12,574 bases of DNA from a virus. Taxonomy: Duplodnaviria; Heunggongvirae; Uroviricota; Caudoviricetes. The translations under genes were made by a program, and so were the position numbers. Positions 1 to 12,574 of the stretch are shown here, piece by piece (the stretch's first letter is position 1; each line of letters opens with the position of its first letter). The notes below the pieces were generated by a model. It made no database searches, was not told where the DNA came from, and worked only from the letters and a program-made list of their open reading frames with translations. The stretch spans positions 1-12,574 of IMG/VR virus record IMGVR_UViG_3300032144_000002. The stretch is one strand, 5' to 3'.

Positions 1-49
1 CCCACGGAGGGAAAATTTAAAGGGTCCTGATTCCATTCTGCGTCAACGT

Positions 50-54
50 GGAGG
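50..54 (+). promoter_or_regulatory. Shine-Dalgarno site for terL
   Basis: GGAGG 8 nt upstream of ATG 63. Confidence 0.7.
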
Positions 55-62
55 GATCCACG

Positions 63-1940
63 ATGGCTAAGGTGGAGCGAGTCACGCGACTGATCACGCG
101 TCAAGTCACGTACATCGGCAAGAAGCAGCTCGCTCAAGAAGCTGGGATGTCTGCGCACGAGGGGACGTCGTGGGAAACGATCATGAAGCCGCCGAAGGAC
201 TACGTCCCTGTCGCGCTGCCCGACGAGGGATGGGACTTCTCGTGCAAGGACTGGGAGGACCGCATCATGAACATGCGGCCTCTGCTGGTCACCAAGAAGT
301 ACCCGCTCAACAAGCACCTCGCTGACCGCGCCATTCGCGCCTTCGCCAAGCTCAAGCTCGCCGACGTAATCGGAACCCCTGCGCTCGACGAAGCTGGGGA
401 GCGCTGGTTCCGCGACATAGTGCGCGTCGTGTTCGGCTGCTACGACGAGGTCCGCAAGATTCGGCTCATCAAGGAGCTGTTCATTCTGGTGCCGAAGAAG
501 AACGCCAAGACTACATACGGCGCTCTGCTCATGCTGCTCGTTCTCATGTTCAACGAGCGACCGCGAGGTCAGGCGATCCTCGCCGCGCCAGAACGCAAAG
601 TCGCTGGCATCGCATTCGATGCGATCGCAGGCGCGATCCAATTGGACGAGGTGCTGCGCGCAAGGTTCATCGTCAAGGAGCAGCAGAAGATCATCATCGA
701 TCGGTGGAACGAGGCCGAACTGCTGGTGATGACGTTCGACCCGTCGGCGCTCACCGGACAATTGGTGTTTGCCGCGCTCATCGACGAGCTCCACGTGATG
801 ATGAAGCTGGCGAAGGCGGCTTCCGCCCTGCGGCAGATACGCGGCGGTATGCTGCCCTTTCCGGAGGCTATCCTCATCTTCATCACCACGCAATCCGAGG
901 AAGCTCCAGTCGGCGTGTTCAAGGCGGAGCTCAACAATGCTCGCGCTGTCCGCGACGGCCTCCGCCCGAAAGCCAAGGTGCTGCCGATCCTGTACGAGTT
1001 CCCGGAGAAGGTCCAGAAGGCCAAGCCAGAGGACGAGCTCAACTGGCGGAACCCGGCAATCTGGGATCGTGTGACACCCAATCTTGGGAAGTCCATTGAG
1101 ATCGGCGCTCTCACGGAGCTGTACGAGGAAGCTTCGGGCAAGGGCGATGCGGAGATGAAGTCGTGGGCGTCTCAGCATCTTAATGTAGAGATCGGCGTCG
1201 CGCTGCGTTCCGATTCATGGACCGGAGCATCGCTATGGGAAGCCGCCAAGTACGAGAAGGCAGCGTCGCTTGAATCGCTGCTCGCTGTTTGCGAGGTCGT
1301 CTGTGCGGGCGTAGACGGTGGCGGTCTCGATGACTTTCTCAGCCTGTCGATCGTCGGACGTGAAAGTGGAACCGGCAAGTGGCTCGTTTGGACTCGTTCA
1401 TGGCTAGCCAAGGTCGCCGCCGAAGCGCGGAAGTCCGAGACGCAACGACTTGAGGACTTTGTAAAGGCTGGCGATCTGGTGGTCGTCGATCAGATGGGTG
1501 AGGACGTCGATCAACTGGTCGAGTGTATCGCCAAGTGCGAGAAAGCTGGGCTGCTTGAGAAGATCGGGCTTGACCCATACGGAGTCGGTAGCATCGTTGA
1601 CGCGCTGCTCGCCGATGGTATTGGTGAGGACCGTATCGTAGGTATCTCGCAGGGATGGAGATTGGGCGGTGCGATCAAGACAGTAGAGCGCGAGCTTGCT
1701 ACTGGCAGGCTCGTGCATGGCGGGCAGCCGATCATGGCGTTCGCAGTGGGCAACGCCAAGACTGAGCCACGTGGAAACGCCACGCTGATTACCAAGGCTG
1801 CATCGGGAGTGGGCAAGATTGACCCGCTGATGGCGACGTTCAATGCGGTGCATTTGATCGCAGCGAACCCAGCTTCGAAGTCCAAGAAGTACCAGTTGAT
1901 TGTTCTTGGTGGAAAGAAGTCGAAACCGGCTGCGGCCTAA
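63..1940 (+). CDS. terL: Terminase large subunit (625 aa) with a 56-aa N-terminal extension
   Basis: Walker A-type LVPKKNAKTT, Walker B ALIDELH, coupling motif ITTQS, nuclease motifs GVDGGGLDD and KIDPLMA. Start placed at ATG 63 because GGAGG (50-54) lies 8 nt upstream; the track's GTG 48 overlaps that SD, and an in-frame TAA at 18-20 bounds the ORF. Confidence 0.95.
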   Translation: MAKVERVTRLITRQVTYIGKKQLAQEAGMSAHEGTSWETIMKPPKDYVPVALPDEGWDFSCKDWEDRIMNMRPLLVTKKYPLNKHLADRAIRAFAKLKLADVIGTPALDEAGERWFRDIVRVVFGCYDEVRKIRLIKELFILVPKKNAKTTYGALLMLLVLMFNERPRGQAILAAPERKVAGIAFDAIAGAIQLDEVLRARFIVKEQQKIIIDRWNEAELLVMTFDPSALTGQLVFAALIDELHVMMKLAKAASALRQIRGGMLPFPEAILIFITTQSEEAPVGVFKAELNNARAVRDGLRPKAKVLPILYEFPEKVQKAKPEDELNWRNPAIWDRVTPNLGKSIEIGALTELYEEASGKGDAEMKSWASQHLNVEIGVALRSDSWTGASLWEAAKYEKAASLESLLAVCEVVCAGVDGGGLDDFLSLSIVGRESGTGKWLVWTRSWLAKVAAEARKSETQRLEDFVKAGDLVVVDQMGEDVDQLVECIAKCEKAGLLEKIGLDPYGVGSIVDALLADGIGEDRIVGISQGWRLGGAIKTVERELATGRLVHGGQPIMAFAVGNAKTEPRGNATLITKAASGVGKIDPLMATFNAVHLIAANPASKSKKYQLIVLGGKKSKPAAA

Positions 1941-1954
1941 CTGGAGAGAAACAG

Positions 1955-1975
1955 GTGAACTGGAGAAACCGATGA
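1955..1975 (+). other. Six-codon leader mini-ORF (VNWRNR) overlapping the next start
   Basis: GGAG at 1943-1946, GTG 1955, TGA 1973-1975 overlapping ATG 1972-1974 (ATGA); the second SD (GGAG 1962-1965) lies inside the mini-ORF. Confidence 0.35.
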
Positions 1976-2160
1976 AAGTGAAGTTGCTGAAGAACAAGAT
2001 GGAGAATGGGAAGCTGAAGACCACGATCCGCATGTCCAAGAAGAAGGTCATCGGCTGGTTCGAAGGCACCATCCTCGAAGTCGGCGACCCGACTGGCGAG
2101 AAGCTGATCGCCAACGGCGAGGCGGAACTGTACGTCGAGCCGACCAAGGCGGGAGCGTAA
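1972..2160 (+). CDS. Small hypothetical phage protein (62 aa), probably virion/head-associated
   Basis: ATG 1972 with GGAG SD (track start at 1900 lies inside terL). MKVKLLK...GTILEVGDPTGEKLIANGEAE pattern resembles small head-module proteins; 18 of the first 20 codons end in G/C. Confidence 0.75.
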   Translation: MKVKLLKNKMENGKLKTTIRMSKKKVIGWFEGTILEVGDPTGEKLIANGEAELYVEPTKAGA

Positions 2161-2163
2161 CCC

Positions 2164-2598
2164 ATGAGCGCAACAGATACCTTCGAAAACAAGATCCTGT
2201 CGCTGTACTTCATGAACGCGGCGGCGGCCAACATCGGCGACGCCTCCGGTCTGCAGCCAGCGGCCACGGCCGGCAGCATCTACGTTTCGCTGCACGAAGC
2301 GGATCCGGGCGAAGACGGCGACCAGACGGACCAGGAAACGGACTACACCAACTACGCTCGCGTCGGCAAGGCCCGATCGGCGTCGGAGTGGAGTGTAGCA
2401 TCCGGCGTTGCCGACAACGACAACATCATCGAGTTCGCGACGTGCGGCGCGACCGGCGCGACGATCACGCACTTCGGCCTGGGATTCGCGGCGTCGAGCA
2501 CCGGCAGTCGAGACATCAACGGCACTGCGTCGCTGGTCGTTTCGAACGGCATCACGCCGCAGTTCGCCGCCGGCGCTCTCGACACGTCGATGGATTGA
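2164..2598 (+). CDS. Conserved phage structural protein (144 aa), Gp80-like family often auto-annotated as tail fibre protein
   Basis: MSxxDxFENxIL start, IYVSLHEADP, ETDYTNYAR, ITHFGL and ITPQFAAGALD motifs recalled for this family; GGGAG SD at 2151-2155; begins 3 nt after the previous stop. Confidence 0.78.
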   Translation: MSATDTFENKILSLYFMNAAAANIGDASGLQPAATAGSIYVSLHEADPGEDGDQTDQETDYTNYARVGKARSASEWSVASGVADNDNIIEFATCGATGATITHFGLGFAASSTGSRDINGTASLVVSNGITPQFAAGALDTSMD

Positions 2599-2603
2599 CG
2601 CCC

Positions 2604-3062
2604 ATGTCGCTGCTGCAGAAACAGGGATACGTAATCGCAGCCAAGGGAGAGCTCGTGGTCGTTGCGATCGCGAGCTTCTCTTGCACCCTGGAGTTCCAGG
2701 ATGCTATTGGCTTGTCCGCGATGATCCGTCGCGAAGCTCGCTATGCGAAGGCGAGCTCCGGCGATCGTTCGCGTCTTCACTCGTCGATCGGCATACTCAG
2801 CGATGCTGCCGCGCAGAAGTGGAGGCAGGCGCGGTGGCGCAAGCTGCCCGAACAGCTGAAGCTGAAGAAACTGTTTGTTCGCCATGCCGGAGCGATGGTG
2901 ACCATCAACATCGGAAGGCAGGGAATGACCATGCCCTACAACGCGGCATTCGAAATCGCGCAGCAGCTGCGAGTCTACGGCAAGCTCGCTCGCAACCATG
3001 CGAATGAGAAAGCCGGCTGGCAGCGTATCAATGAACTCGCGACACCGGTAACGGAGCACTGA
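2604..3062 (+). CDS. Hypothetical protein (152 aa) built from two ~46-aa homologous halves
   Basis: ATG 2604, 5 nt after the previous TGA (track start at 2388 overlaps the upstream gene); ungapped self-alignment at offset 81 residues. Confidence 0.72.
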   Translation: MSLLQKQGYVIAAKGELVVVAIASFSCTLEFQDAIGLSAMIRREARYAKASSGDRSRLHSSIGILSDAAAQKWRQARWRKLPEQLKLKKLFVRHAGAMVTINIGRQGMTMPYNAAFEIAQQLRVYGKLARNHANEKAGWQRINELATPVTEH

Positions 3063-3065
3063 GCC

Positions 3066-3470
3066 ATGTGTGAGCTACTCGTCCGCGTCGTCGATAAGGT
3101 CAACGCGAAAGACCCGGACAAGGATGCACGGTGCTTGAAGCGCGGCGATGTCGTGGTGATCTGTGAAGATGGCCACCAGTGGAGCAAGCGGGAACTGGCC
3201 AACCCGAGCTGGCGCGTCATCAAGCTGCCTGGTACGAATCGTCGCGAGGTCCAGCATCTTATGTACCAGGAGGTGGGTGCAGACCGCCGAGTGGGCATGA
3301 GCCGCGCCTTCAAGGTGGACGTAGACCACATTTCCATTCGCTCGCAGGTCGAGAGTGCCAAGGAGCCGGTGGCCCTGCAAAAGGCCGCTCTCGACGCTGT
3401 GGTGGTGCTCAAGCCCGGAATCACTGATCCGCGCCTCGACCCGGCCACGCGGGCCAAGTCGAAGGGGTAG
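3066..3470 (+). CDS. Hypothetical phage protein (134 aa), MCELLVRVVDK...RGDVVVI...W...E...P.WRVIKLP type
   Basis: GGAG SD at 3053-3056, 3-nt gap after the upstream stop, fills the operon exactly; resembles hypothetical proteins I recall preceding beta-helix fibre genes. Confidence 0.78.
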   Translation: MCELLVRVVDKVNAKDPDKDARCLKRGDVVVICEDGHQWSKRELANPSWRVIKLPGTNRREVQHLMYQEVGADRRVGMSRAFKVDVDHISIRSQVESAKEPVALQKAALDAVVVLKPGITDPRLDPATRAKSKG

Positions 3471-3474
3471 GGGC

Positions 3475-5685
3475 GTGGCCACGACATACACGGTGGGGAC
3501 TGGGGGCGGACGAGACTACTCCACGCCGCAGGCTGCGATTGACGATATCCCGTCTACGCCCACCGGCGGATACATCGTGGATGTGTACAACGATTCGGAG
3601 TACACAGCCGGGTTTGTAATTGATGGATTCACCACGAGCTCGACGGACTTCCTAACAGTCCGAGCTGCCGATGGTGAATCATTCATGGACCATGCTGGCG
3701 CGGCCAGCAATCCACAGCGCTACGACCAGACGAAGGGGGTGGGATTCGACATCCCTTATGCGGTGTTCGGATACGGGGCGAACCTGCAAGGGAATCTCCC
3801 ATACGTCACCATCGAGCGCATGCAGTTCAAGTGCTCCGAAGGACTGGCAACGAGTGTGCTGGTCTTTGAGTCGTACAACATCGACACCTCGATTGTGCGG
3901 AACTGCATCTTCGAGAAGTCCTATAACGACGGGTTTGGGTCAGGCATTGGGTTTGCGCGTGGCGGCGTCATCCAGAATTGTCTGTTCTATTACACGCATG
4001 CGGCTGAAACTATTGGTTTCAATTGCCAGTCCTCTCCTCCTAGGTTTGTCAACTGCGCGTTCCTTGCGCCTAGTGGGTGCTCTGAGGCGGCGGTTGTCTC
4101 CGATGGTGACAACGGCGTCGAACTGATCAACGTAGCGATATTCGGCTACTCGGCTGTTTCCTCTGGCGCCAACGTCAATGCTGACAACTGCGCGACCAAC
4201 CTTGCGAGCGGGTTCACGGGGGATAACAACGAGTACAGCAAGGTCTTCGCTGACGAGTACGAGGCGAGTGATGATTTCCGGTTGAAGTCCGGCAATAGCA
4301 TGCTGTTCGGCCAGGACACCAGTGCATACACCGGCGGTCTGGACATTATCGGCCAGCCACAACCAGGAAGCCCGCCGATCTACGTAGGGCACTGGGCGTT
4401 TCAGGGCGGCGGGCCAAGCGGTGAGATGAACGGTAGCGCTTCTTTTTCGATGTCTCCAACGAGCACTCTGTCTGGGGATGGCGCTCTTACCGGAACGGCT
4501 GCGTTAGCGATTGCCGGTGTTGGCACAATCAACGGACGCGCGCCGATGGCGGGCGCTGCTACGCTCAATATCGCTGGAACTTCTGCGTTGTCAGCTAGAG
4601 GCGCGTTGATCGGTAGCGCTTCATTGACCGTCACGCCAACTGGCAGTCTAACTGGCGACGGCGCGCTCATCGGCAATGCTTCTATTACTGTCACGCCAGT
4701 TGGTTCGCTCTCTGGTCGCGGCGCACTGACAGGGCTGGCGTCTATCACGTTGACGCCAACTGGCGCGCTTGCTGGCGGTGGCGCTGTTACTGGCACTGCG
4801 AATATCACCATCGTTGCCTCAGCGACGCTGGCTGGTCGCGGGGCCTTGGCAGGCGCCGCTTCGGTTACGATCACGCCATCGGGGGCGCTTATTGGTGACG
4901 GCGCTCTTATAGGAGACGCAGATCTAGCGCTGTCACCAGAAGGTGATCTCAGCAACGCTGACGCTGGAAGCATGGCCGGTTCTGCATCGCTGCTACTGAC
5001 TCCGTCTGGTACGCTTGTCGGCGACGGCGCGCTACTCGGGTTGAGCACGATTACCATCACGCCGTCTGGCGCTCTTTCTGGTCGCGGCGCCTTGACCGGG
5101 TTGGCTGCCATCACCGTGGCACCAGTCGGTACGCTCAATGGTAGAGGACCGCTGTCTGGGTCCGCAGGATTGACCATCACCGGAACCGCAGCATTGGGCG
5201 GTCGCGGGCGGTTGCTTGGTAGTGCTTCGCTCACCATCACTGGTATCGGTACGCTCACCTACACAAGCGAAGACTATATGATCGGCGCAGCGTCGATCAC
5301 AATAGCTGGTAGCGGAACGATGTCTGGTCGCGGACGTCTGCTTGGCACAGCAGCGCTCGCAGTGACTGGTATCGGTAGCATCAACGGTAGGACGCCGATA
5401 TCCGGGTCTGCGTCTTTCGCCATTACGTCTGTGTCGCTACTGCGCGGGCGCGGCGCGCTGATCGGCAGTGCTTCGCTTCTTATGACGCCCACTGGTAATC
5501 TGACCGAGAAGATTCCTGGTGAGGCCAGCGGTAACGCGTACATTACGTGGGCCGCGACTGGCGCGATGATGATTGAAACCGAAACTGAAGCCACTATCAT
5601 TCACATCATCGGCGTCGTCAATTCTAATAGAGCGCTGCTTGGAACTGTGGCTACGAATATTTCCCTACTTGGAGTGCGAAGCTAA
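3475..5685 (+). CDS. Putative virion fibre/spike (736 aa): N-terminal pectin-lyase-like beta-helix, choice-of-anchor-Q-like motif, 20-aa repeat stalk
   Basis: GTG 3475 preceded by a G-rich SD-like stretch, 4 nt after TAG 3470. TYTVGTGGGRDYSTPQAAIDDI resembles the start of pectinesterase/pectate-lyase-like beta-helices; repeated xxRNCIF/IQNCLFY/FVNCAFL rungs; DFRLKSGNS...DIIGQPQP...VGHWAFQ matches the DxxLxxxSP...DxxGxxR...DIGAYE closing motif; then 18-19 repeats. Confidence 0.85.
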   Translation: MATTYTVGTGGGRDYSTPQAAIDDIPSTPTGGYIVDVYNDSEYTAGFVIDGFTTSSTDFLTVRAADGESFMDHAGAASNPQRYDQTKGVGFDIPYAVFGYGANLQGNLPYVTIERMQFKCSEGLATSVLVFESYNIDTSIVRNCIFEKSYNDGFGSGIGFARGGVIQNCLFYYTHAAETIGFNCQSSPPRFVNCAFLAPSGCSEAAVVSDGDNGVELINVAIFGYSAVSSGANVNADNCATNLASGFTGDNNEYSKVFADEYEASDDFRLKSGNSMLFGQDTSAYTGGLDIIGQPQPGSPPIYVGHWAFQGGGPSGEMNGSASFSMSPTSTLSGDGALTGTAALAIAGVGTINGRAPMAGAATLNIAGTSALSARGALIGSASLTVTPTGSLTGDGALIGNASITVTPVGSLSGRGALTGLASITLTPTGALAGGGAVTGTANITIVASATLAGRGALAGAASVTITPSGALIGDGALIGDADLALSPEGDLSNADAGSMAGSASLLLTPSGTLVGDGALLGLSTITITPSGALSGRGALTGLAAITVAPVGTLNGRGPLSGSAGLTITGTAALGGRGRLLGSASLTITGIGTLTYTSEDYMIGAASITIAGSGTMSGRGRLLGTAALAVTGIGSINGRTPISGSASFAITSVSLLRGRGALIGSASLLMTPTGNLTEKIPGEASGNAYITWAATGAMMIETETEATIIHIIGVVNSNRALLGTVATNISLLGVRS
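4432..5571 (+). repeat. Tandem 20-aa (60-nt) protein repeats, consensus GSASLTITPxGxLxGRGALx; 18 full units plus 1 degenerate
   Basis: Read directly from the translation: 15 units of 20 aa and 3 units of 22 aa (units 9, 14, 18) span 4432-5529; degenerate unit GNAYITWAATGAMM follows. Repeats are diverged at DNA level. Confidence 0.95.
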
Positions 5686-6107
5686 TGGCGCGCCAGCAAG
5701 ACATCAAGCTGTTCAGCGGTAATGACTTCGTTCTGAGAGCGACGATCATCGACGCTGATACTGGTCTAGCGTACGATCTTTCAGACATCACCGGGCTGGT
5801 TTGGGCGATGGCGCCGAAGGCGTGCCCGCCACCAGCGTCGTCAAGGTACGGTCGCTGCACCTGCAGAACGGATCCTAACTGTGGAAGGATCTTCGGCGAT
5901 GCCATCGTTACCAAGAACCTCGACGACGGTGTTCTGGTCACTGATCCGACGAATGGGAAGGCGGAGGTTACGATCAACAGCGATGATCTCGAACCTCTAT
6001 GCGGAAAGTATTACTACGAGATGCAGGTTGTTTCCAGTACAGGTAAGCGATCTACTGTTCTGTTCGGGTTTGTTTCGGTGCAAGAGAATTTGATCGCGGC
6101 AGCATAG
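5685..6107 (+). CDS. Ig-like / BppU-N-terminal-like adaptor protein (140 aa) with Cys-rich insertion
   Basis: TAATG overlap with the fibre stop; GNDFVLRATI.D..G..YDL, GVLVTDPTNGKAEVTI, GKYYYEMQV..STG...TVLFGFVSV motifs typical of BppU-N/DUF2479-like domains (recalled). Confidence 0.72.
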   Translation: MARQQDIKLFSGNDFVLRATIIDADTGLAYDLSDITGLVWAMAPKACPPPASSRYGRCTCRTDPNCGRIFGDAIVTKNLDDGVLVTDPTNGKAEVTINSDDLEPLCGKYYYEMQVVSSTGKRSTVLFGFVSVQENLIAAA

Positions 6108-6123
6108 CCGTTAAGGAGTACAT

Positions 6124-6786
6124 GTGAGCGTGTTGAAGAGAGCGTATGGTGTCGTCGAACTCAAAGAGTTCGATGACAACAAGCGTGAGTTCGAGGGAAT
6201 CGCTACCACGATTTCTACGGATCGCTACGGCGATATCGTGGAGTCGAGCGGTGCTGTGTTCGAGCTCCCGCTTCCATTGCTGTGGCAGCACAATGCCTCG
6301 GCACCTGTGGGCCACGTCACTTCGGCGACGCCCACGAAGAAGCACATCAAGGTGAAGGGCAACCTCGCAAAGACCGAGGTTGCTGGCAATCTGAAGGACC
6401 GACTCGATGACGCATGGCAGAGCCTCAAGCTCGGTCTTGTGCGGCACCTCTCGATCGGGTTCAATCCGATCAAGTACGAGCCGGTCCCGGAAAGCGACAA
6501 GTACGGCCTCCACTTCCTGGAGTGGGAATGGTTGGAGCTGTCGTTCGTGACTATCCCTGCCAATGCTGGCGCGGGCATCACGGCAATCAAGTCTCTCAAT
6601 GCTCTGAACGCGGAGCAGCTGAGGGTCTTGCGCGAGTACGACCGAAACCTCATGCGAGCCGCGTCAGGCAAGAGCGGAGGCAACGGCGCAGTACGACTCG
6701 ACGAGTACTTCAAGCCCGGCGTCACGGGTGTCGACAAGTCCAAGTCGGGGCAGCGTAAACGCGCTGTGTCTCTCAAGGTCAACTGA
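6124..6786 (+). CDS. HK97-family prohead (maturation) protease (220 aa)
   Basis: FEGIATT, DRYGDIV, PLLWQH (catalytic His), LSIGF (catalytic Ser), ELSFVTIPAN motifs; AAGGAG SD at 6113-6118, GTG start. Confidence 0.95.
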   Translation: MSVLKRAYGVVELKEFDDNKREFEGIATTISTDRYGDIVESSGAVFELPLPLLWQHNASAPVGHVTSATPTKKHIKVKGNLAKTEVAGNLKDRLDDAWQSLKLGLVRHLSIGFNPIKYEPVPESDKYGLHFLEWEWLELSFVTIPANAGAGITAIKSLNALNAEQLRVLREYDRNLMRAASGKSGGNGAVRLDEYFKPGVTGVDKSKSGQRKRAVSLKVN

Positions 6787-6805
6787 GTACAACTGGAGAA
6801 GAAAG

Positions 6806-8215
6806 ATGAAGCTGAGTGAACAGATCAAGGCTCTGCAGGCTGCTCGCGCTGCGAAGGCCGCCCGTCTGCAGGCGATCCTGGCGAAGGCTGCCGAGGAGAC
6901 CCGCTCCCTGGAAGCCGACGAGGCCGAAGAGTTCGATGCCACCGACACCGAGATCAAGACGATCGACGCCGATCTCGTGCGCCTGAAGCGTGCCGAATCC
7001 ATCCTGGTGGAAGAGGCCGAGGAAGTCGACGAGGACGAGGTGGTCACTCGTCGCGTGACGAGCCAGAAGAAGAGCAAGGAGACGAACCGCGGACCGACGA
7101 TCATCATCGCCGATCCGAAGAACAAGGACGAGAAGTTCAAGGGCCAGAACTTCACGCGGCTCTGCATCGCACAGGCTGCGGCGCACATCAAGAACCACGC
7201 GTTCACGCCGGCACAGTACGCCGAGCATCGCTGGGGCGCGAAGGAAGCCGCCGGCGTCATCATGATCCTGCGCGCCGGCGTGCCGTCGGGCGGGTCGGAG
7301 AGCGGCCAGTGGGGCGCGGAGCTCGCGGCTGTGGACTCGCGCTACCGCGGTGACTTCATCGAGTTCCTGTACTCGCGGACGGTGTACGACCGTCTGGCGC
7401 TGCGCGAAGTCCCGGACAACGTGCTGATCAAGGGCCAGGATGGCGCGGCGACGGGATACTGGGTCGGTGAGAAGAAGGCCATCCCGGTGTCGTCGATGGA
7501 CTTCCTGGATGTCGAGCTCCGCGCGCTGAAGGTCGGCGCGATCGCGGCCATCTCGAACGAGCTGATCCTGCGTTCTGATCCCTCAGCGGAGGCGCTGGTG
7601 CGTGACGGTCTCGTGAACGCGAGCGCGCAGCGTGTCGATACCACGTTCATCTCGGCCAACGCGGCAGTGTCCAATGTGTCCCCGGCCGGTATCCTGAATG
7701 GCGTCAGCGCCATCGCAGCGACCGGCGAGGACGCTCAGTCCCTGTTCAACGACATCGGCCTGCTGTACGCGCCGTTCATCACGGCCAAGAACGCCACGGG
7801 GCTGACTTACGTGATGCACCCGGGTCTGGCCAAGAGCATCTCGCTGATGCGCAATGCCCTGAGCCAGAAGGAGTTCCCGGAGCTGACCGCGAACGGCGGC
7901 ATGCTGGAAGGCGACCCGGTCGTGACCGGCGAGAACGTGGCCACCGACGACCTGATCCTGCTGAAGCCGAGCGACATCTATCGCATCGGCGACCGCGGGT
8001 TCGAGGTGTCGGTCTCGAAGGAGGCCACCATCGAGATGGACTCGGCGCCGACCGGTGACGGCCACACGCCGACGGCTGCGTCCGCGAACCTGCTCTCGAT
8101 GTTCCAGAACGAGATGACCGCCTTCAAGGTGGTGCGTCCGATCTCGTTCGCGAAGCGTCGGTCAAGCGCGGTGCAGTTCATCGGCAACGCGACCTACGGC
8201 GGTTCGGCGACCTGA
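6806..8215 (+). CDS. HK97-fold major capsid protein (469 aa) with N-terminal delta (scaffold) domain
   Basis: ATG 6806 with GGAG SD (6795-6798); coiled-coil N-terminus MKLSEQIKALQ...; GAATGYWVGEKKAIP, ISNELILRS, SMFQNEMTAFKV..PISFAKRR motifs; very strong codon bias (20/20 G/C-ending codons at 7742-7801). Confidence 0.97.
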   Translation: MKLSEQIKALQAARAAKAARLQAILAKAAEETRSLEADEAEEFDATDTEIKTIDADLVRLKRAESILVEEAEEVDEDEVVTRRVTSQKKSKETNRGPTIIIADPKNKDEKFKGQNFTRLCIAQAAAHIKNHAFTPAQYAEHRWGAKEAAGVIMILRAGVPSGGSESGQWGAELAAVDSRYRGDFIEFLYSRTVYDRLALREVPDNVLIKGQDGAATGYWVGEKKAIPVSSMDFLDVELRALKVGAIAAISNELILRSDPSAEALVRDGLVNASAQRVDTTFISANAAVSNVSPAGILNGVSAIAATGEDAQSLFNDIGLLYAPFITAKNATGLTYVMHPGLAKSISLMRNALSQKEFPELTANGGMLEGDPVVTGENVATDDLILLKPSDIYRIGDRGFEVSVSKEATIEMDSAPTGDGHTPTAASANLLSMFQNEMTAFKVVRPISFAKRRSSAVQFIGNATYGGSAT

Positions 8216-8231
8216 TAAGTCGCAGATGGAA

Positions 8232-8264
8232 AGCCGGGCACTGTAATGGTGCCCGGCTACTTTC
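8232..8264 (+). terminator. Hairpin after the capsid gene; probable weak/leaky intrinsic terminator or RNA-stabilising stem
   Basis: Perfect 10-bp stem AGCCGGGCAC (8232-8241) / GTGCCCGGCT (8249-8258), 7-nt loop TGTAATG, followed only by ACTTTC (short, interrupted U tract). Confidence 0.6.
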
Positions 8265-8285
8265 GCAGCAAAGAGCAGGTGCGCT

Positions 8286-8576
8286 ATGAAAGAACTCAAA
8301 GTGCTGAAGCCGTTTCCATATGGCGGCAAGATGCGAAACAAGAACGAGCGAATCATGGCGTCTAACAAGCACGCTGCGGTTCTCTCGTTGACTGGCAAGG
8401 CCAAAGAGCTTCCCAAGGAACGGAAGGCCAAAGAGTACAAGACCGCAGTGATGACACCGGAACCAGAAGGCTCTGGGCGGGCAGCGCCACGATCGAACAG
8501 ACAGCAGCGCCGTGCTGAGAGAAGGGCGCAGCAGAAGCCGGGCTACCAGCGCTCGGATATGGCAGCTGAATCGTGA
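8286..8576 (+). CDS. Small basic hypothetical protein (96 aa) between capsid and portal genes
   Basis: ATG 8286; stop overlaps the portal start (GTGA). N-terminal KELKVLKPFPY...AAVLSLTGKA pattern like small head-module proteins; Lys/Arg-rich C-terminus. Confidence 0.8.
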   Translation: MKELKVLKPFPYGGKMRNKNERIMASNKHAAVLSLTGKAKELPKERKAKEYKTAVMTPEPEGSGRAAPRSNRQQRRAERRAQQKPGYQRSDMAAES

Positions 8577-10201
8577 AACGCAAGAACTTCATCAGCCGAG
8601 CGTTCCAGCGGCGCGTGGTGCTGCCGCTCGCCAAGAAGTTGCTTGAAGCATATCCAGTCGACGGTAGGGGGAGCGGCTGGCGCAGAATTCTCGAGACCTA
8701 CACCGGGGCGTGGCAGCAGGATGTTGAAGTCAACTACGCGGTAGTCGACGCCTATTGGGCGGACTTCTCTTGCAAGACTCTGATCGCAGGCGACATCTCA
8801 AAAATGCCGCCGTATGTGATGGAGTATGACGAGGCCCAGCAGATCTGGAAGCGGACAAAGAAGCGACCGGTACTGCGTAAGCCGAACCACTACCAGACCA
8901 CCATCGAGTTCATTTTCGCGTGGATCATCAGTCAGCTTCGCCACGGCAATACCTACGTGCTGAAGGTTCGCGACGACAAGAGGTTCATCGTCGCGCTTCA
9001 CGTTCTCGATCCGTGCCGCGTGATGCCACTGATTACCAAGGACGGCGACGTCTACTATCGTCTCGACAGCGAAAAGCTGGCCGGGCTCGGCGATGGGCGC
9101 CAGATAGTGGTGCCAGCTAGCGAGATCATTCACGATCGGATGTACTGCTTGTTCCATCATCTCGTCGGTGTGTCGCCAGTATTCGCGTGCGGCATACAGG
9201 CGATGCAAGGCTCGGCGATCATCAATACGTCGTCAGCGTTCTTCACCAATCGCGGAATGCCCGCCGGTATCCTCACTGCACCGGGACACATTAGCGATGA
9301 CACTGCCAATCGTCTGAAGACTTATTTCGACGACAACTTCACCGGGCAGAACGCCGGCAAGGTCGCAGTGCTTGGTGATGATCTGAAATTCGAATCGCTG
9401 GGAACAAGCGCCACGGACTCGCAGTTGATCGAACAGCTGAAAATGACCGGCGAAATGATCGCTGCATGCTACCATGTGCCGGGCTACAAGATCGGCGTAG
9501 GACAGATGCCGACGGTCAACAATCTCGCTGCGCTCAACCAGCAGTATTACGAGCAGTGCTTGCAGTATCTGGTGGAGAAGATGGAGCAGAGGCTCGACGA
9601 AGGACTTGAGCTCAATACCGATATCGAGCAGTGCTGGTTTGACACGTCGGTGCTTATGCGCATGGATCCACAGACTCGTTCGACGGTACAGGGCCAGAAA
9701 GTCAAGGATGGTATTCTTGCGCCGGATGAAGCGCGGCGTGAGGATGATCTACCGCCTGTTCCTGGCGGGGGAATCCCGTACATGCAGCAGCAGAACTACT
9801 CGCTGCAGGATCTGGCGCTGCGTTCGCAGCGTGACGCGGCCAAGGGCGACGACACGAATGTCCAGTCGCAGGCTATGAACGGCGCGCAAGTGAAGGCGAT
9901 GCAGGAGATCATCGCGGCAGTCGCGAGCAAACAGCTACCGCCAGACGCTGCGAAGGCCGCGCTACTGGCTGCGTTCCCTCTGCTTGACAAGGAAGAAGTT
10001 GACGCGATGATTGATCCTCTCGCGAACTTCACTCCGGCTCCGGTCGAGGCACCAGAGTCAGCTGAAGAGCCCGCTAATGAGGCCGAGGATGAGGATGCGG
10101 ATGAGGATGAGGCTGAGGATGAGGATGAAGAGCCTGATGAAGAATCTGAAGAAAGCCTCAAGGCAATGGTTAGCAGCAGAATGATGGAGGTGGTCCCGTG
10201 A
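8573..10201 (+). CDS. HK97-family portal protein (542 aa) with C-terminal helical and acidic extension
   Basis: GAWQQ, LIAGDISKMP, RKPNHYQT..EF..AW...LRHGNTY, IIHDR, PAGILTAPG, EQLKMT...YHVPGYKIG, LAPDEARR..DLPP..GG..YMQQQNYSL motifs. Confidence 0.95.
   Translation: MKRKNFISRAFQRRVVLPLAKKLLEAYPVDGRGSGWRRILETYTGAWQQDVEVNYAVVDAYWADFSCKTLIAGDISKMPPYVMEYDEAQQIWKRTKKRPVLRKPNHYQTTIEFIFAWIISQLRHGNTYVLKVRDDKRFIVALHVLDPCRVMPLITKDGDVYYRLDSEKLAGLGDGRQIVVPASEIIHDRMYCLFHHLVGVSPVFACGIQAMQGSAIINTSSAFFTNRGMPAGILTAPGHISDDTANRLKTYFDDNFTGQNAGKVAVLGDDLKFESLGTSATDSQLIEQLKMTGEMIAACYHVPGYKIGVGQMPTVNNLAALNQQYYEQCLQYLVEKMEQRLDEGLELNTDIEQCWFDTSVLMRMDPQTRSTVQGQKVKDGILAPDEARREDDLPPVPGGGIPYMQQQNYSLQDLALRSQRDAAKGDDTNVQSQAMNGAQVKAMQEIIAAVASKQLPPDAAKAALLAAFPLLDKEEVDAMIDPLANFTPAPVEAPESAEEPANEAEDEDADEDEAEDEDEEPDEESEESLKAMVSSRMMEVVP
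10079..10153 (+). repeat. Acidic low-complexity tract in the portal tail
   Basis: 20 of 25 residues are D/E; near-perfect 18-nt duplication GAGGC(C/T)GAGGATGAGGAT at 10079-10096 and 10109-10126. Confidence 0.85.
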
Positions 10202-11763
10202 GCGTTAACATGCGCCAAGCAATCGACATCATTTCTGGCGAGCTCGCCAAAGCGGTGCTGCGGCTCAAAGCATTGTTCGATGAGCGACTGTCCAGCGTTG
10301 AGAAGCGTGTTCAGACGCTTGCTGAGATCGAGGACAGACGTGCCGCCAATGCCGGCACTGCAGCTCTCAAGATAGAAGTCGACTCTGAAGAGATGCAGAG
10401 ACTTCTAAGAGAGTGTACCCAGATTGTCGAGCAGAAGAACGCTGAATTCATGCGCGAACTTTCTGAGAAGTTGCGCGAGGTGGAAAATGAGGCCGCTGCG
10501 CGGGCCGCTGCGCAGAGCGAGCTGATCGCTGAGCTGCGAGCGCTTACTGCTGAGAGGACCGCCGCTCCTACCATGGATGCTATCGTACGACAGATTGTCG
10601 TAGGTATGGCTTCCGACGAAGGACGTCGTCTTGCTGAAGTTCGAGCCATGTGCGATCAGATCATGGCGCCGCACTTGCGGCAGCAATCTGAGCATCTTAC
10701 AACGGTAGCGCGTAGAGTCGACGAGCTCGCCGCCGCCATACCAACCGTGCCAAGTATGGCTGAGATCGCCGCCAGTGCTGCCGCACTTGTGCCAGTACCG
10801 ACCAATGGAAAAGACGGCGTTGACGGGCGAGACGGGCGAGACGGTAAGGACGGTAAGGACGGTGTTGATGGCGTCAACGGCAAGGACGGCGCTGATGGGC
10901 TCAATGGTAAGGACGGAGCCGCCGGGTTGAACGGCCGAGACGGCGTCGATGGCGCGGCTGGTAAGGATGGTGTTGATGGCCAGAGCGTTGACATCAAGAC
11001 AGTGCGTGCTATGATCGATGAATCCGTTGCCGAAGCTGTGTCTAAGTTGCCGGCACCGGCAGATGGCAAGGATGGCGCTGATGGTAAAGACGGAGCTGCT
11101 GGGCTCAACGGTAAGGACGGCGTCGATGGGCGCGATGGAAAGGACGGTGTCAATGGTGCCGATGGCAAGGACGGAACGTCGTTCACGCTGCGTGACGCAG
11201 AAGAAGTAATAGCCAAGGCGGTAGCCGCGCTGCCGATTCCCAGCGCGGCCGATGTCGCTGCGCTGATGAAGCCTGCGATCGCAGAGTGGGCGCTTGACTT
11301 CGAGCGTCGGGCACAGGGTCTGTTGCACGACGTCATGTCCAGGATACCGAAGGACGGCAAGGACGGCAAGGACGGCAAGGACGGTAGGGACGGTAAGGAC
11401 GGTATTGAAGTCAAGATGCTGCGCCCGGTCCTGCTCGAAGACGGAGTAACTCTGCGGTACGAATTCAAAGCTGGCGACGAAACCATTACGCATGATATCG
11501 CGTTGCCGATACCGGAATGGGTCGGCCACTACAAAGCTGGTGACACCTATCCGCGCGCTAAGATGGTCACGTACGGCGGATCCGTGTTCATGGCGATGCG
11601 AGAGACTTCGTCTAAACCGGAGACCGACGATTCGTGGAAGTTGGTCGTCAAGCGCGGTCGTGAGGGTAAACAGGGTATGAAAGGCGACAAGGGCGACAAG
11701 GGTGAGAAGGGCGAGCGCGGCGACAAGGGCGCACCTCCGTTCTCGCCGATCGCTGGGAGGTAG
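10198..11763 (+). CDS. Coiled-coil + collagen-like + CBM5/12-like portal-adjacent protein (521 aa)
   Basis: GGAGGT SD (10186-10191), GTGA overlap with the portal stop; ~180-aa helical N-terminus; four G-X-Y blocks; C-terminal W.G.Y..G..Y....VTYGGS.F.A...T...P....W.LVVKRG module. Confidence 0.88.
   Translation: MSVNMRQAIDIISGELAKAVLRLKALFDERLSSVEKRVQTLAEIEDRRAANAGTAALKIEVDSEEMQRLLRECTQIVEQKNAEFMRELSEKLREVENEAAARAAAQSELIAELRALTAERTAAPTMDAIVRQIVVGMASDEGRRLAEVRAMCDQIMAPHLRQQSEHLTTVARRVDELAAAIPTVPSMAEIAASAAALVPVPTNGKDGVDGRDGRDGKDGKDGVDGVNGKDGADGLNGKDGAAGLNGRDGVDGAAGKDGVDGQSVDIKTVRAMIDESVAEAVSKLPAPADGKDGADGKDGAAGLNGKDGVDGRDGKDGVNGADGKDGTSFTLRDAEEVIAKAVAALPIPSAADVAALMKPAIAEWALDFERRAQGLLHDVMSRIPKDGKDGKDGKDGRDGKDGIEVKMLRPVLLEDGVTLRYEFKAGDETITHDIALPIPEWVGHYKAGDTYPRAKMVTYGGSVFMAMRETSSKPETDDSWKLVVKRGREGKQGMKGDKGDKGEKGERGDKGAPPFSPIAGR
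10807..10986 (+). repeat. Collagen-like block 1, 20 G-X-Y triplets
   Basis: GKD GVD GRD GRD GKD ... GVD GQS read from the translation. Confidence 0.95.
11065..11181 (+). repeat. Collagen-like block 2, 13 G-X-Y triplets
   Basis: GKD GAD GKD GAA GLN ... GKD GTS. Confidence 0.95.
11356..11409 (+). repeat. Collagen-like block 3, 6 triplets, overlapping a perfect 9-bp tandem repeat
   Basis: GKD GKD GKD GRD GKD GIE; AAGGACGGC three times at 11350-11376. Confidence 0.9.
11656..11736 (+). repeat. Collagen-like block 4, 9 triplets of G-D/E-K type
   Basis: GRE GKQ GMK GDK GDK GEK GER GDK GAP. Confidence 0.9.
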
Positions 11764-11768
11764 ATAAC

Positions 11769-12083
11769 ATGGGACTCGTAACGCTTGAAGCCGCAAAGCG
11801 CCACCTGAAGCCGCCTGGAACGGTTGATGACACGCGCATTACTGACATCATTGCGCAAGCCACGAGCATCGTTCTGGAATACATCAAGAAGCCGGAAGGT
11901 GAATACCAGAACGCGGAAGGCGCGCCGATCGCTCAGCTCGTGCCGCCTAACGTACAGGCTGCATGCCTGCTCGTAATTGGCTCGCTGTATGACAACGCTG
12001 ACGGTCAGAACAAAGACAAGGATCCATTGTCACCGGCTGTCAAGAGCCTGCTGCACGCGAGAAGGATGCCGTCAATTGCCTAA
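11769..12083 (+). CDS. HK97 gp6-like head-tail connector (adaptor) protein (104 aa)
   Basis: LVTLEAAKRHLK...DD..I...I..A...V..YI, VPPNVQAACLLVIGSLYDN, PAVKSLL motifs; GGGAGG SD 8 nt upstream. Confidence 0.9.
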   Translation: MGLVTLEAAKRHLKPPGTVDDTRITDIIAQATSIVLEYIKKPEGEYQNAEGAPIAQLVPPNVQAACLLVIGSLYDNADGQNKDKDPLSPAVKSLLHARRMPSIA

Positions 12084-12574
12084 GATCGGCGATAACACGA
12101 ATCCTGTATGGGCCGGTGCCACAGTGACGTGCATCGCATCAGGTCCGTCATTGACGCAGGCGGATGTCGATTTCGTGCGCGGCAAGTCTAGGGTCATCGC
12201 CGTCAATAGGGAGTACGAGACTGCTCCTTGGGCGGATGTCTGCTACGCCGCTGACTATGATTTCTGGCGCGTGTATCTTGCTGAAGGTCTTCGTGACGTA
12301 TTCAAAGGGCAGCTGTGGACAATGAGCGAGCAGGCGAGAAAGGAGTTTGGCATCAGCTGCATCGGTCGCTGTAACGGCGACGGATATTCAATCATACCGA
12401 ACACCATCACCACTGGTGGAAACAGCGGCTATCAAGCGGTGCATCTGGCGGCCTATTGGGGCGCATCGCGAATAGTCATGTTGGGGTATGACATGCAGAA
12501 AACCGGCGGCAAGGAACACCACTATGGAAAGCACAAGGGACAACTTCGCAATGGCCGCAGCTACCCGTTCTGGA
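12076..12574 (+). CDS. Maf/DUF115 (MptE-like) or sialyltransferase-fold glycosyltransferase-like protein, 3'-truncated by the window
   Basis: Not in the ORF track. Frame +1 translated by hand: (M)PKIGDNTNPVWAGATVTCIASGPSLTQADVDFVRGKSRVIAVNREYETAPWADVCYAADYDFW...TGGNSGYQAVHLAAYWGASRIVMLGYDMQKTGGKEHHYGKH...; probable TTG start at 12076 with AAGGA (12062-12066), overlapping the connector stop by 8 nt. Start position uncertain. Confidence 0.8.
   Translation, partial: MPKIGDNTNPVWAGATVTCIASGPSLTQADVDFVRGKSRVIAVNREYETAPWADVCYAADYDFWRVYLAEGLRDVFKGQLWTMSEQARKEFGISCIGRCNGDGYSIIPNTITTGGNSGYQAVHLAAYWGASRIVMLGYDMQKTGGKEHHYGKHKGQLRNGRSYPFW

Follow-up and report, generated by a model that had tools for sequence, protein, structure and literature searches.

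A mobile six-gene cassette in the head module of an uncultured siphophage probably encodes a beads-on-a-rope accessory fiber

What might a tightly packed run of six genes be doing between the terminase and prohead protease genes of a tailed phage? We addressed this question for an IMG/VR virus record (IMGVR_UViG_3300032144_000002) of 76,574 bp that is rated complete, and whose first 12.6 kb (12,574 nucleotides, hereafter the window) hold the head genes, all of them on the + strand. The cassette of interest spans positions 1972-6107 and consists of the open reading frames (ORFs) g1 (1972-2160, 62 amino acids), g2 (2164-2598, 144 amino acids), g3 (2604-3062, 152 amino acids), g4 (3066-3470, 134 amino acids), g5 (3475-5685, 736 amino acids, with a GTG start) and g6 (5685-6107, 140 amino acids). 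An original prediction made from the sequence of this locus took the cassette for a capsid-spike module and a candidate for an undescribed head appendage system. Our analysis points elsewhere, in that its parts match described fibers of phages GP4, Bas63 and A1002 that are anchored at the neck or tail, and we consider it probable that the cassette encodes a chain-like ('beads-on-a-rope') accessory fiber of the kind represented by GP4 Fiber I, the Bas63 whisker-collar and A1002.

The product of g2 belongs to the bead family of these fibers. It matches Pfam PF23140 (Gp80, 'Podophage GP4 fiber I protein gp80') with an E-value of 3.4e-12 and 47.3 bits, where the cut-off is 27, which bears out the earlier description of a Gp80-like protein in the cassette, and it is the sole Gp80-family copy in the genome. 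A single-sequence search of the PDB with g2 found nothing, and only a family profile built from g2 and seven relatives reached chain a of 8JOU, which is GP4 gp80 (E 5.5e-6). The protein also matches phrog_240, which PHROG labels 'head protein'. Whereas the original prediction cast g2 as the base of an appendage, we read it as a repeated unit: g2 is most likely the bead of the fiber, and is predicted to dimerize on the rope described below.

The candidate rope is g5, whose GTG start is backed by the homolog P0002, which begins MATTYT. Its layout comprises a domain of about 320 residues (3475-4431, amino acids 1-319), a repeat region (4432-5523, amino acids 320-683) and a tail of about 50 residues (amino acids 684-736, which with the stop codon occupies 5524-5685). 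Autocorrelation and motif layout resolve the repeat region, overlooked in the original prediction, into 18 tandem units with an exact period of 20 residues and the consensus GSASLTITPTGTLSGRGALx. Single-sequence searches with g5 gave no Pfam, PHROG or PDB match, a tblastn search of the rope against cultured phages gave no match with the BLAST low-complexity filter on, and a search for related loci with the whole of g5 returned no confirmed relative.

We next considered how the 20-residue repeats and Gp80 genes are distributed relative to one another, and did so in both directions. In the forward direction, loci were found with g2 alone and the approximately 2 kb downstream of the Gp80 gene were examined for 20-residue periodicity; a periodic protein was present at L005, L006, L008, L009 and L011-L014, and the two relatives of the window discussed below, L030 and L035, likewise have a 20-residue-repeat protein downstream of their Gp80 gene. 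In the reverse direction, a search with the repeat region only recovered 65 proteins, and the genomic contexts of six of these (P0156, P0166, P0184, P0170, P0200 and P0217) were looked up. In all six cases a Pfam Gp80 gene lies on the same strand, 0.03-2.2 kb upstream of the repeat protein gene, and the backgrounds include Mu-F/scaffold heads, lambda-E capsids, P22-like podophages and ClpP/HK97 heads.

To ask whether the two proteins are predicted to interact, four copies of g2 were modeled together with a 60-residue piece of g5 corresponding to three repeats. The complex reached an interaction prediction score from aligned errors (ipSAE), which is the model's own confidence and not a measurement, of 0.67 (0.67, 0.66 and 0.71 in individual runs), against 0.00 for the best of three controls. 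This mark is reached by 58 of 80 solved complexes and by two of 110 mismatched pairs, a calibration from which our job differs in its own alignments and its 4+1 chain layout, and because similar complexes have been solved (8JOU and others) the score may mainly reflect likeness to them. Contacts agree to at least 97% between runs, and the partner has a predicted local distance difference test (pLDDT) score of at least 73. All four g2 copies contact the rope, within residues 14-58 of the piece and at about ten residues per monomer, a spacing that implies one dimer per repeat. Furthermore, 10 of the 18 invariant residues of g2 fall within the 30 predicted rope-interface residues (hypergeometric p 5e-4). 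The prediction supports binding of g2 to the g5 rope.

Downstream of the rope gene, and overlapping it by one base in the sequence TAATG, g6 encodes a protein that matches phrog_1084, a PHROG family of unknown function. Its family is a large one of phage proteins of about 115 amino acids (349 representatives at E <= 1e-3), and the g6-type domain is also found as tandem copies in large proteins. AlphaFold2 (AF2), given a 56-sequence alignment, models g6 as an immunoglobulin (Ig)-like sandwich with a pLDDT of 89.7. Via its fold, g6 matches DT57C 8hqz_T (Z 10.8), the T5 tail-tip chain 7qg9_L (Z 10.6) and the 80alpha and TP901-1 (BppU) baseplate proteins (Z 10.3), as well as baseplate proteins of Douge and NF5; the BppU structures 4v96 and 3uh8 score Z 10.3 and 8.7, respectively. 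At the neck, it matches Sf14 9c39_J (Z 9.8) and residues 56-166 of the Bas63 connector protein 9mt4_H (Z 9.5). The best fold matches (Z 10.3-10.8), namely T5 p132, its DT57C homolog and the lactococcal BppU N-domain (7QG9, 8HQZ, 4V96, 3UH8), align over 105-112 residues with a root-mean-square deviation of 2.6-2.9 and are small Ig-like ring proteins that hold fibers or receptor-binding proteins at the tail tip. Among structural look-alikes in the Atlas are clusters labeled BppU_N (16% of members) and LtfC. At E <= 0.1, however, g6 has no Pfam match to BppU_N (PF10651) or LtfC, and so the 'BppU-N-like adaptor' of the original prediction holds at the level of fold, as an Ig-like domain of the BppU-N, T5 p132 and Bas63 collar kind, but not as sequence-level membership of the family. 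Genes of the g6 family follow the rope in L035, L008, L009 and L036, which represent two unrelated phage groups. The g6 protein would most likely form an Ig-like ring, or collar, that holds the C-terminal end of the rope on the virion, probably at the head-tail junction.

A feature that sets g6 apart from the T5, DT57C and BppU proteins is a Cys-rich insert at amino acids 45-70 (5817-5894), with cysteines C47, C58, C60 and C66 and a pLDDT of 59-66, which most members of the g6 family lack. The collar rings of Bas63 are reported to be disulfide-linked, and the insert might serve in ring cross-linking or in metal binding.

These three proteins find counterparts in fibers that have been solved. 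According to the accounts given in PMC13730344 and PMC12609058, Gp80-fold dimers are threaded on a rope through β-sheet augmentation in GP4, A1002, VP1 and Bas63. The GP4 fiber (Zheng et al. 2023, as cited in both of those papers) has five dimers, and its rope, the product of a gene of its own, interlocks with an Ig-like collar. Bas63 has two dimers on a rope that extends the Ig-like collar protein at its N-terminus, and its collar is seated at the adaptor/head-completion interface (PMC12609058). In A1002, 11 dimers occupy about 268 rope residues, or about 24 per dimer, along a rope about 300 Å long (PMC13730344).

With GP4 Fiber I (from a Ralstonia podophage, 8JOU), as those accounts describe it, our cassette shares the bead family PF23140, a separate rope gene and an adjacent Ig-like protein, which in GP4 is the fiber-tail adaptor. 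GP4 is a podophage with five dimers per fiber, however, whereas the phage studied here is a siphophage with a tail like that of the Rhodobacter capsulatus gene transfer agent (RcGTA) and about 18 predicted sites, and its rope has a near-perfect 20-residue repeat, a globular N-terminal domain of about 320 residues and no sequence similarity to the solved chains. The collar-whisker of Bas63 (an Escherichia myophage, 9MT4) and Sf14 (9C39) has an Ig-like collar, a rope and Gp80-fold dimers, to which g6 (by its fold), g5 and g2 would correspond, and the gene order rope-Ig mirrors the domain order of the Bas63 protein, in which the rope is N-terminal and the Ig domain C-terminal; in Bas63, though, a single polypeptide serves as both rope and collar, each rope takes only two dimers, and there is no globular domain at the distal end, whereas here the rope and the Ig protein come from separate genes joined by the TAATG overlap. 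A1002 (a Pseudomonas podophage; nozzle-rope gp39 with gp40/gp41 dimers) has, as we predict for the cassette, a long rope with serial docking sites, β-sheet augmentation, a distal N-terminus and a proximal C-terminus, but its rope is part of a split nozzle and it uses two bead proteins, whereas the cassette has one bead gene and a rope without a nozzle domain. Given the roughly 24 rope residues per dimer in A1002, the 20-residue period of g5 is the right size for one dimer per repeat. Distinct to the present system are thus its siphophage background with a GTA-like tail, its approximately 18 predicted dimer sites as compared to 5 in GP4, 2 in Bas63 and 11 in A1002, its strictly periodic rope, its swappable globular tip and two conserved extra proteins, g1 and g3.

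On the fiber that we propose, one g2 dimer would clamp each 20-residue repeat by β-strand augmentation through its conserved C-terminal strands, so that each rope would carry about 18 dimers (36 copies of g2) and, if scaled from A1002, would extend to about 50 nm. Some rope homologs are longer still: P0155 and P0156 (L036 7001-10696) are 1231 residues long and carry about 49 of the 20-residue repeats, which would correspond to fibers well over 100 nm if there is one dimer per repeat.

The ends of the rope differ in how they are conserved. Every one of the 65 rope homologs has a globular N-terminal domain followed by 8-50 repeats and then a short tail, and the N-terminal domains among them include SGNH/GDSL esterases, Laminin_G_3, GH30/59, BNR and Ig domains. 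The tail of g5 is conserved with that of the L035 rope, the N-terminal domains of these two ropes differ, and each of the two directly precedes a g6 homolog. From this domain order, the shared tail and g6, and the N-distal polarity of the Bas63 and A1002 ropes, we infer that the variable N-terminal domain is the distal working end and that the C-terminal tail is the proximal end held by g6. Domains homologous to the g5 N-terminal domain occur in P0001 (where it is duplicated), P0002, P0003 and P0004, with 45-49% identity to those of P0001 and P0002, and in P0002, P0003 and P0004 they are joined to other kinds of repeats. P0002 comes from a podophage-like locus without a detectable Gp80 gene, which indicates that the tip domain travels separately from the rope.

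As to what the tip is, the original prediction of an enzymatic or adhesive β-helix fiber was not confirmed. AF2 leaves amino acids 1-322 of full-length g5 unmodeled (pLDDT < 35), g5 itself has no Pfam match, the right-handed β-helix and pectate-lyase-like families (PF13229, PF12708) included, and just one of six homologs of its N-terminal domain has a weak Beta_helix match (E 0.051), and a profile search of the PDB with this domain gave nothing better than chain 7uia_C of SV2 (E 0.047), a weak match. The domain carries NCxF-type motifs and may be a β-helix. The tip would probably bind or cut a host surface glycan, and thereby provide a reversible first contact with the host.

We then weighed where on the virion such a fiber would sit. 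The cassette usually lies next to connector genes, which, together with the way in which every solved relative is anchored, favors the neck, as the probable attachment site, over the capsid vertices. It is unlikely that the same beaded fiber is instead mounted on the distal tail, with the g6 collar encircling the tail tube or baseplate in the manner of T5 p132 or lactococcal BppU and the whole acting as a side tail fiber, even though the tail-tip chains of T5 and DT57C (Z 10.6-10.8), followed by the baseplate proteins of 80alpha, TP901-1, Douge and NF5, are the closest folds to g6, and the chain-like fibers of A1002 hang from the nozzle (PMC13730344). Wherever it was sampled, the cassette is found within or next to head and connector genes and never among the baseplate genes, the neck collars of Sf14 and Bas63 score nearly as high against g6 (Z 9.5-9.8), and the phage has its own RcGTA-type baseplate and fiber genes further downstream. 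The placement between terL and the protease gene, the 'head protein' label of phrog_240, the lie of the GP4 fibers against the capsid in the mature virion (PMC13730344) and the head spikes that RcGTA-type particles carry would all suit the capsid-vertex spike or head decoration, seated on pentons or hexons and expressed with the head genes, that was originally proposed. We nonetheless regard such a structure as very unlikely, since the cassette does not keep a fixed genome position (in L030 it follows the head-tail adaptor gene Ad1), no part of it resembles a known decoration or penton-binding protein, and by its fold g6 is related to adaptors of collars and baseplates. The solved Gp80-type fibers, moreover, are all anchored at the neck or tail (PMC13730344, PMC12609058).

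A different challenge concerns g5 itself, which could be a conventional, self-standing β-solenoid fiber or tailspike whose repeats stack on one another, with g2 an unrelated virion neighbor. When g5 is modeled alone, AF2 folds the repeats as a regular solenoid with three short strands per repeat (amino acids 323-670, pLDDT 56-78), a repeat of about 20 residues fits one turn of a β-helix, and the NCxF-type motifs and the weak Beta_helix match of one homolog are in keeping with such a fold. Set against these are the strict linkage of the repeats to Gp80 genes in the reverse test (6/6), the complex prediction (0.67 versus 0.00 for controls), the enrichment of conserved g2 residues at the predicted rope interface, and a repeat number that ranges from 8 to 50 as expected of a length-setting string; a self-standing solenoid is consequently hard to credit. 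Several points, in addition to the solenoid model and the limits of the complex prediction given above, count against the beaded neck fiber. The g5 repeat profile has no meaningful match to any solved chain in the PDB, solved ropes included. The two best matches of g6, in T5 and DT57C, are tail-tip and not neck collars, and generic Ig V domains reach Z 8.6-9 against g6, only 1-2 units below the phage collars. In L030 the rope is followed by a different small protein of 108 amino acids that is dissimilar to g6, and no g6 homolog is present, which means that the set can do without g6. Nor does a beaded fiber account for g1, g3 and g4, and the phage is uncultured.

With the beaded fiber as our preferred interpretation, we turned to whether the cassette behaves as a unit across genomes. 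One counterpart is L035, an 82.5-kb contig whose terL, MCP (major capsid protein) and portal are 65%, 71% and 65% identical to those of the window. Here the cassette occupies the same terL-protease slot with its middle exchanged, in the order 61 amino acids, Gp80, 149, 509, 168, 568 (rope) and 136 (g6-like), and includes homologs of g1, g2, g3, g5 and g6. Since L035 shares the terL-then-cassette order, this placement is not special to the phage studied here. The 509-residue protein that L035 encodes in place of g4 (3480-5009) has an N-terminus resembling a signal peptide and contains about 20 prolines in a row; an export-type signal is odd for a virion part. In L030, a 55-kb contig with a portal 54% and an Ad1 59% identical to those of the window and tail genes at about 68% nucleotide identity, g1, g2, g3, g4 and the rope are found in the same order at 41-68% identity, but directly after Ad1. 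In L025, L026 and L028, which are more distantly related, terL, protease, MCP and portal follow one another in the same unusual order, and the slot contains only about 1 kb. In L025 this slot holds a type IV pilin-like ORF (8439-8873), with the N-terminus MKKQSGFTLIELLIV, which looks like a moron gene. The cassette is also present in the unrelated head modules of L008, L036, L037, L039 and L041, where it follows the capsid gene and precedes the connector genes (Ad1 in L008 and L036, a Mu gp36-like gene in L037). The cassette junctions of the window, L030 and L035 have neither a leader nor a boundary repeat in common. Judged by these comparisons, the cassette is a self-contained, exchangeable structural module, which upholds that element of the original prediction: the synteny search placed the gene set in the same slot in L035, after Ad1 in L030 and after the capsid gene elsewhere, and L025 carries other cargo in the slot.

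The remaining three genes have no informative family or fold match. The g1 protein has weak matches to DUF7302 (E 0.007) and phrog_2616, and jackhmmer finds its homologs adjoining the Gp80 gene in L030, L035, L037 and L005. The g3 protein is an internal tandem duplication, in that amino acids 3-68 resemble amino acids 81-146, and is among the most conserved of the cassette, with homologs in L030, L035, L005, L007, L008, L009, L010, L036 and L037; it has no Pfam, PHROG or PDB match, and the Atlas gave nothing informative. We also asked whether g3 could be a divergent second bead, and hhalign against the Gp80 family ruled this out (probability 0.1). Without a Pfam, PHROG or Atlas signal, g4 has its sole homolog in L030 (41% identity), whose rope shares the N-terminal domain of g5; L008, L009 and L010 have unrelated genes at the g4 position and L035 fills the slot with others, which identifies g4 as a variable-slot protein. 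Nothing shows g3 or g4 to be chaperones, which the original prediction had included in the module. On our model, g1 and g3 would be conserved companions that may help to assemble or cap the fiber, and g4 would go with this particular N-terminal tip.

The variation in repeat number raises the possibility that the 20-residue-repeat rope is a portable ruler, in which the repeat count sets the number of Gp80 dimers and hence the distance between the virion and a swappable tip, and that a five- or six-gene kit (small protein, bead, g3, rope and Ig collar) fits podo-, myo- and siphophages alike. We put this forward tentatively, as somewhat short of an even prospect. If true, the siphophage studied here would be the first with a GTA-like tail to bear a beaded fiber, one that is about three times longer than that of GP4 and ends in a glycan-active tip. 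Beaded fibers have so far been seen only by cryo-electron microscopy, and in just a few cultured phages; for their rope proteins a sequence signature has been lacking. The cassette and the 65 rope homologs offer one, namely a globular tip, n x 20-residue repeats and a Gp80 gene alongside, which would allow such fibers to be recognized in metagenomes and their length to be predicted from sequence, and the modularity of enzyme or lectin tips could inform both the prediction of host range and the engineering of fibers. The puzzling insertion in the head module of this genome can now be read as a mobile accessory-fiber kit.

On the left of the cassette, terL (48-1940; phrog_9, E 3e-94; Pfam TerL_ATPase and TerL_nuclease) ends 31 nucleotides before it, and on its right the prohead protease gene (6124-6786; Peptidase_S78, phrog_80) starts 16 nucleotides after it. 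Intergenic gaps of 3, 5, 3 and 4 nucleotides separate g1/g2, g2/g3, g3/g4 and g4/g5. All six ORFs are real genes, and the coordinates, gaps and Pfam and PHROG assignments of the flanks concur with the earlier description of a compact run of six genes, all in one orientation, that separates terL from the protease. A promoter and terminator scan returned nothing above shuffled expectation and so lends no support to a separate transcription unit for the cassette. No break in GC content coincides with the cassette, and among cultured phages the whole window had no megablast match.

Downstream of the protease are, by Pfam and PHROGs, the MCP (6806-8215) and portal (8573-10201) genes, with a 96-residue ORF (8286-8576) between them, followed by a gene for a collagen-like protein of 521 amino acids (10198-11763) and Ad1 (11769-12083). 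The usual order of an HK97-like head module is terL, portal, protease, MCP. The order terL, protease, MCP, small ORF, portal is common to this lineage (window 48-10201; L025, L030, L035). The structural genes that remain specify a siphophage tail of the RcGTA/phiJL001 type, with a tail-completion gp17, a lambda-like tube protein, a tape measure, DUF2460, a phiJL001 gp84 hub, an Rcc01698-like protein and DUF2793 proteins. The collagen-like protein has GKDGxDG runs, its gene directly follows the portal gene with a 4-nucleotide overlap, and in its C-terminal part it matches the extension that long 'portal protein' PHROGs (phrog_1289 and phrog_2271) have at their C-terminus; it is kept in L025, L030 and L035, and may be a second, portal-proximal fiber. 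Lastly, an MptE-like/sialyltransferase-like ORF (11977-12573; phrog_4603, E 9e-33) overlaps the end of the Ad1 gene, and its homolog in L030 sits just after the fiber cassette.

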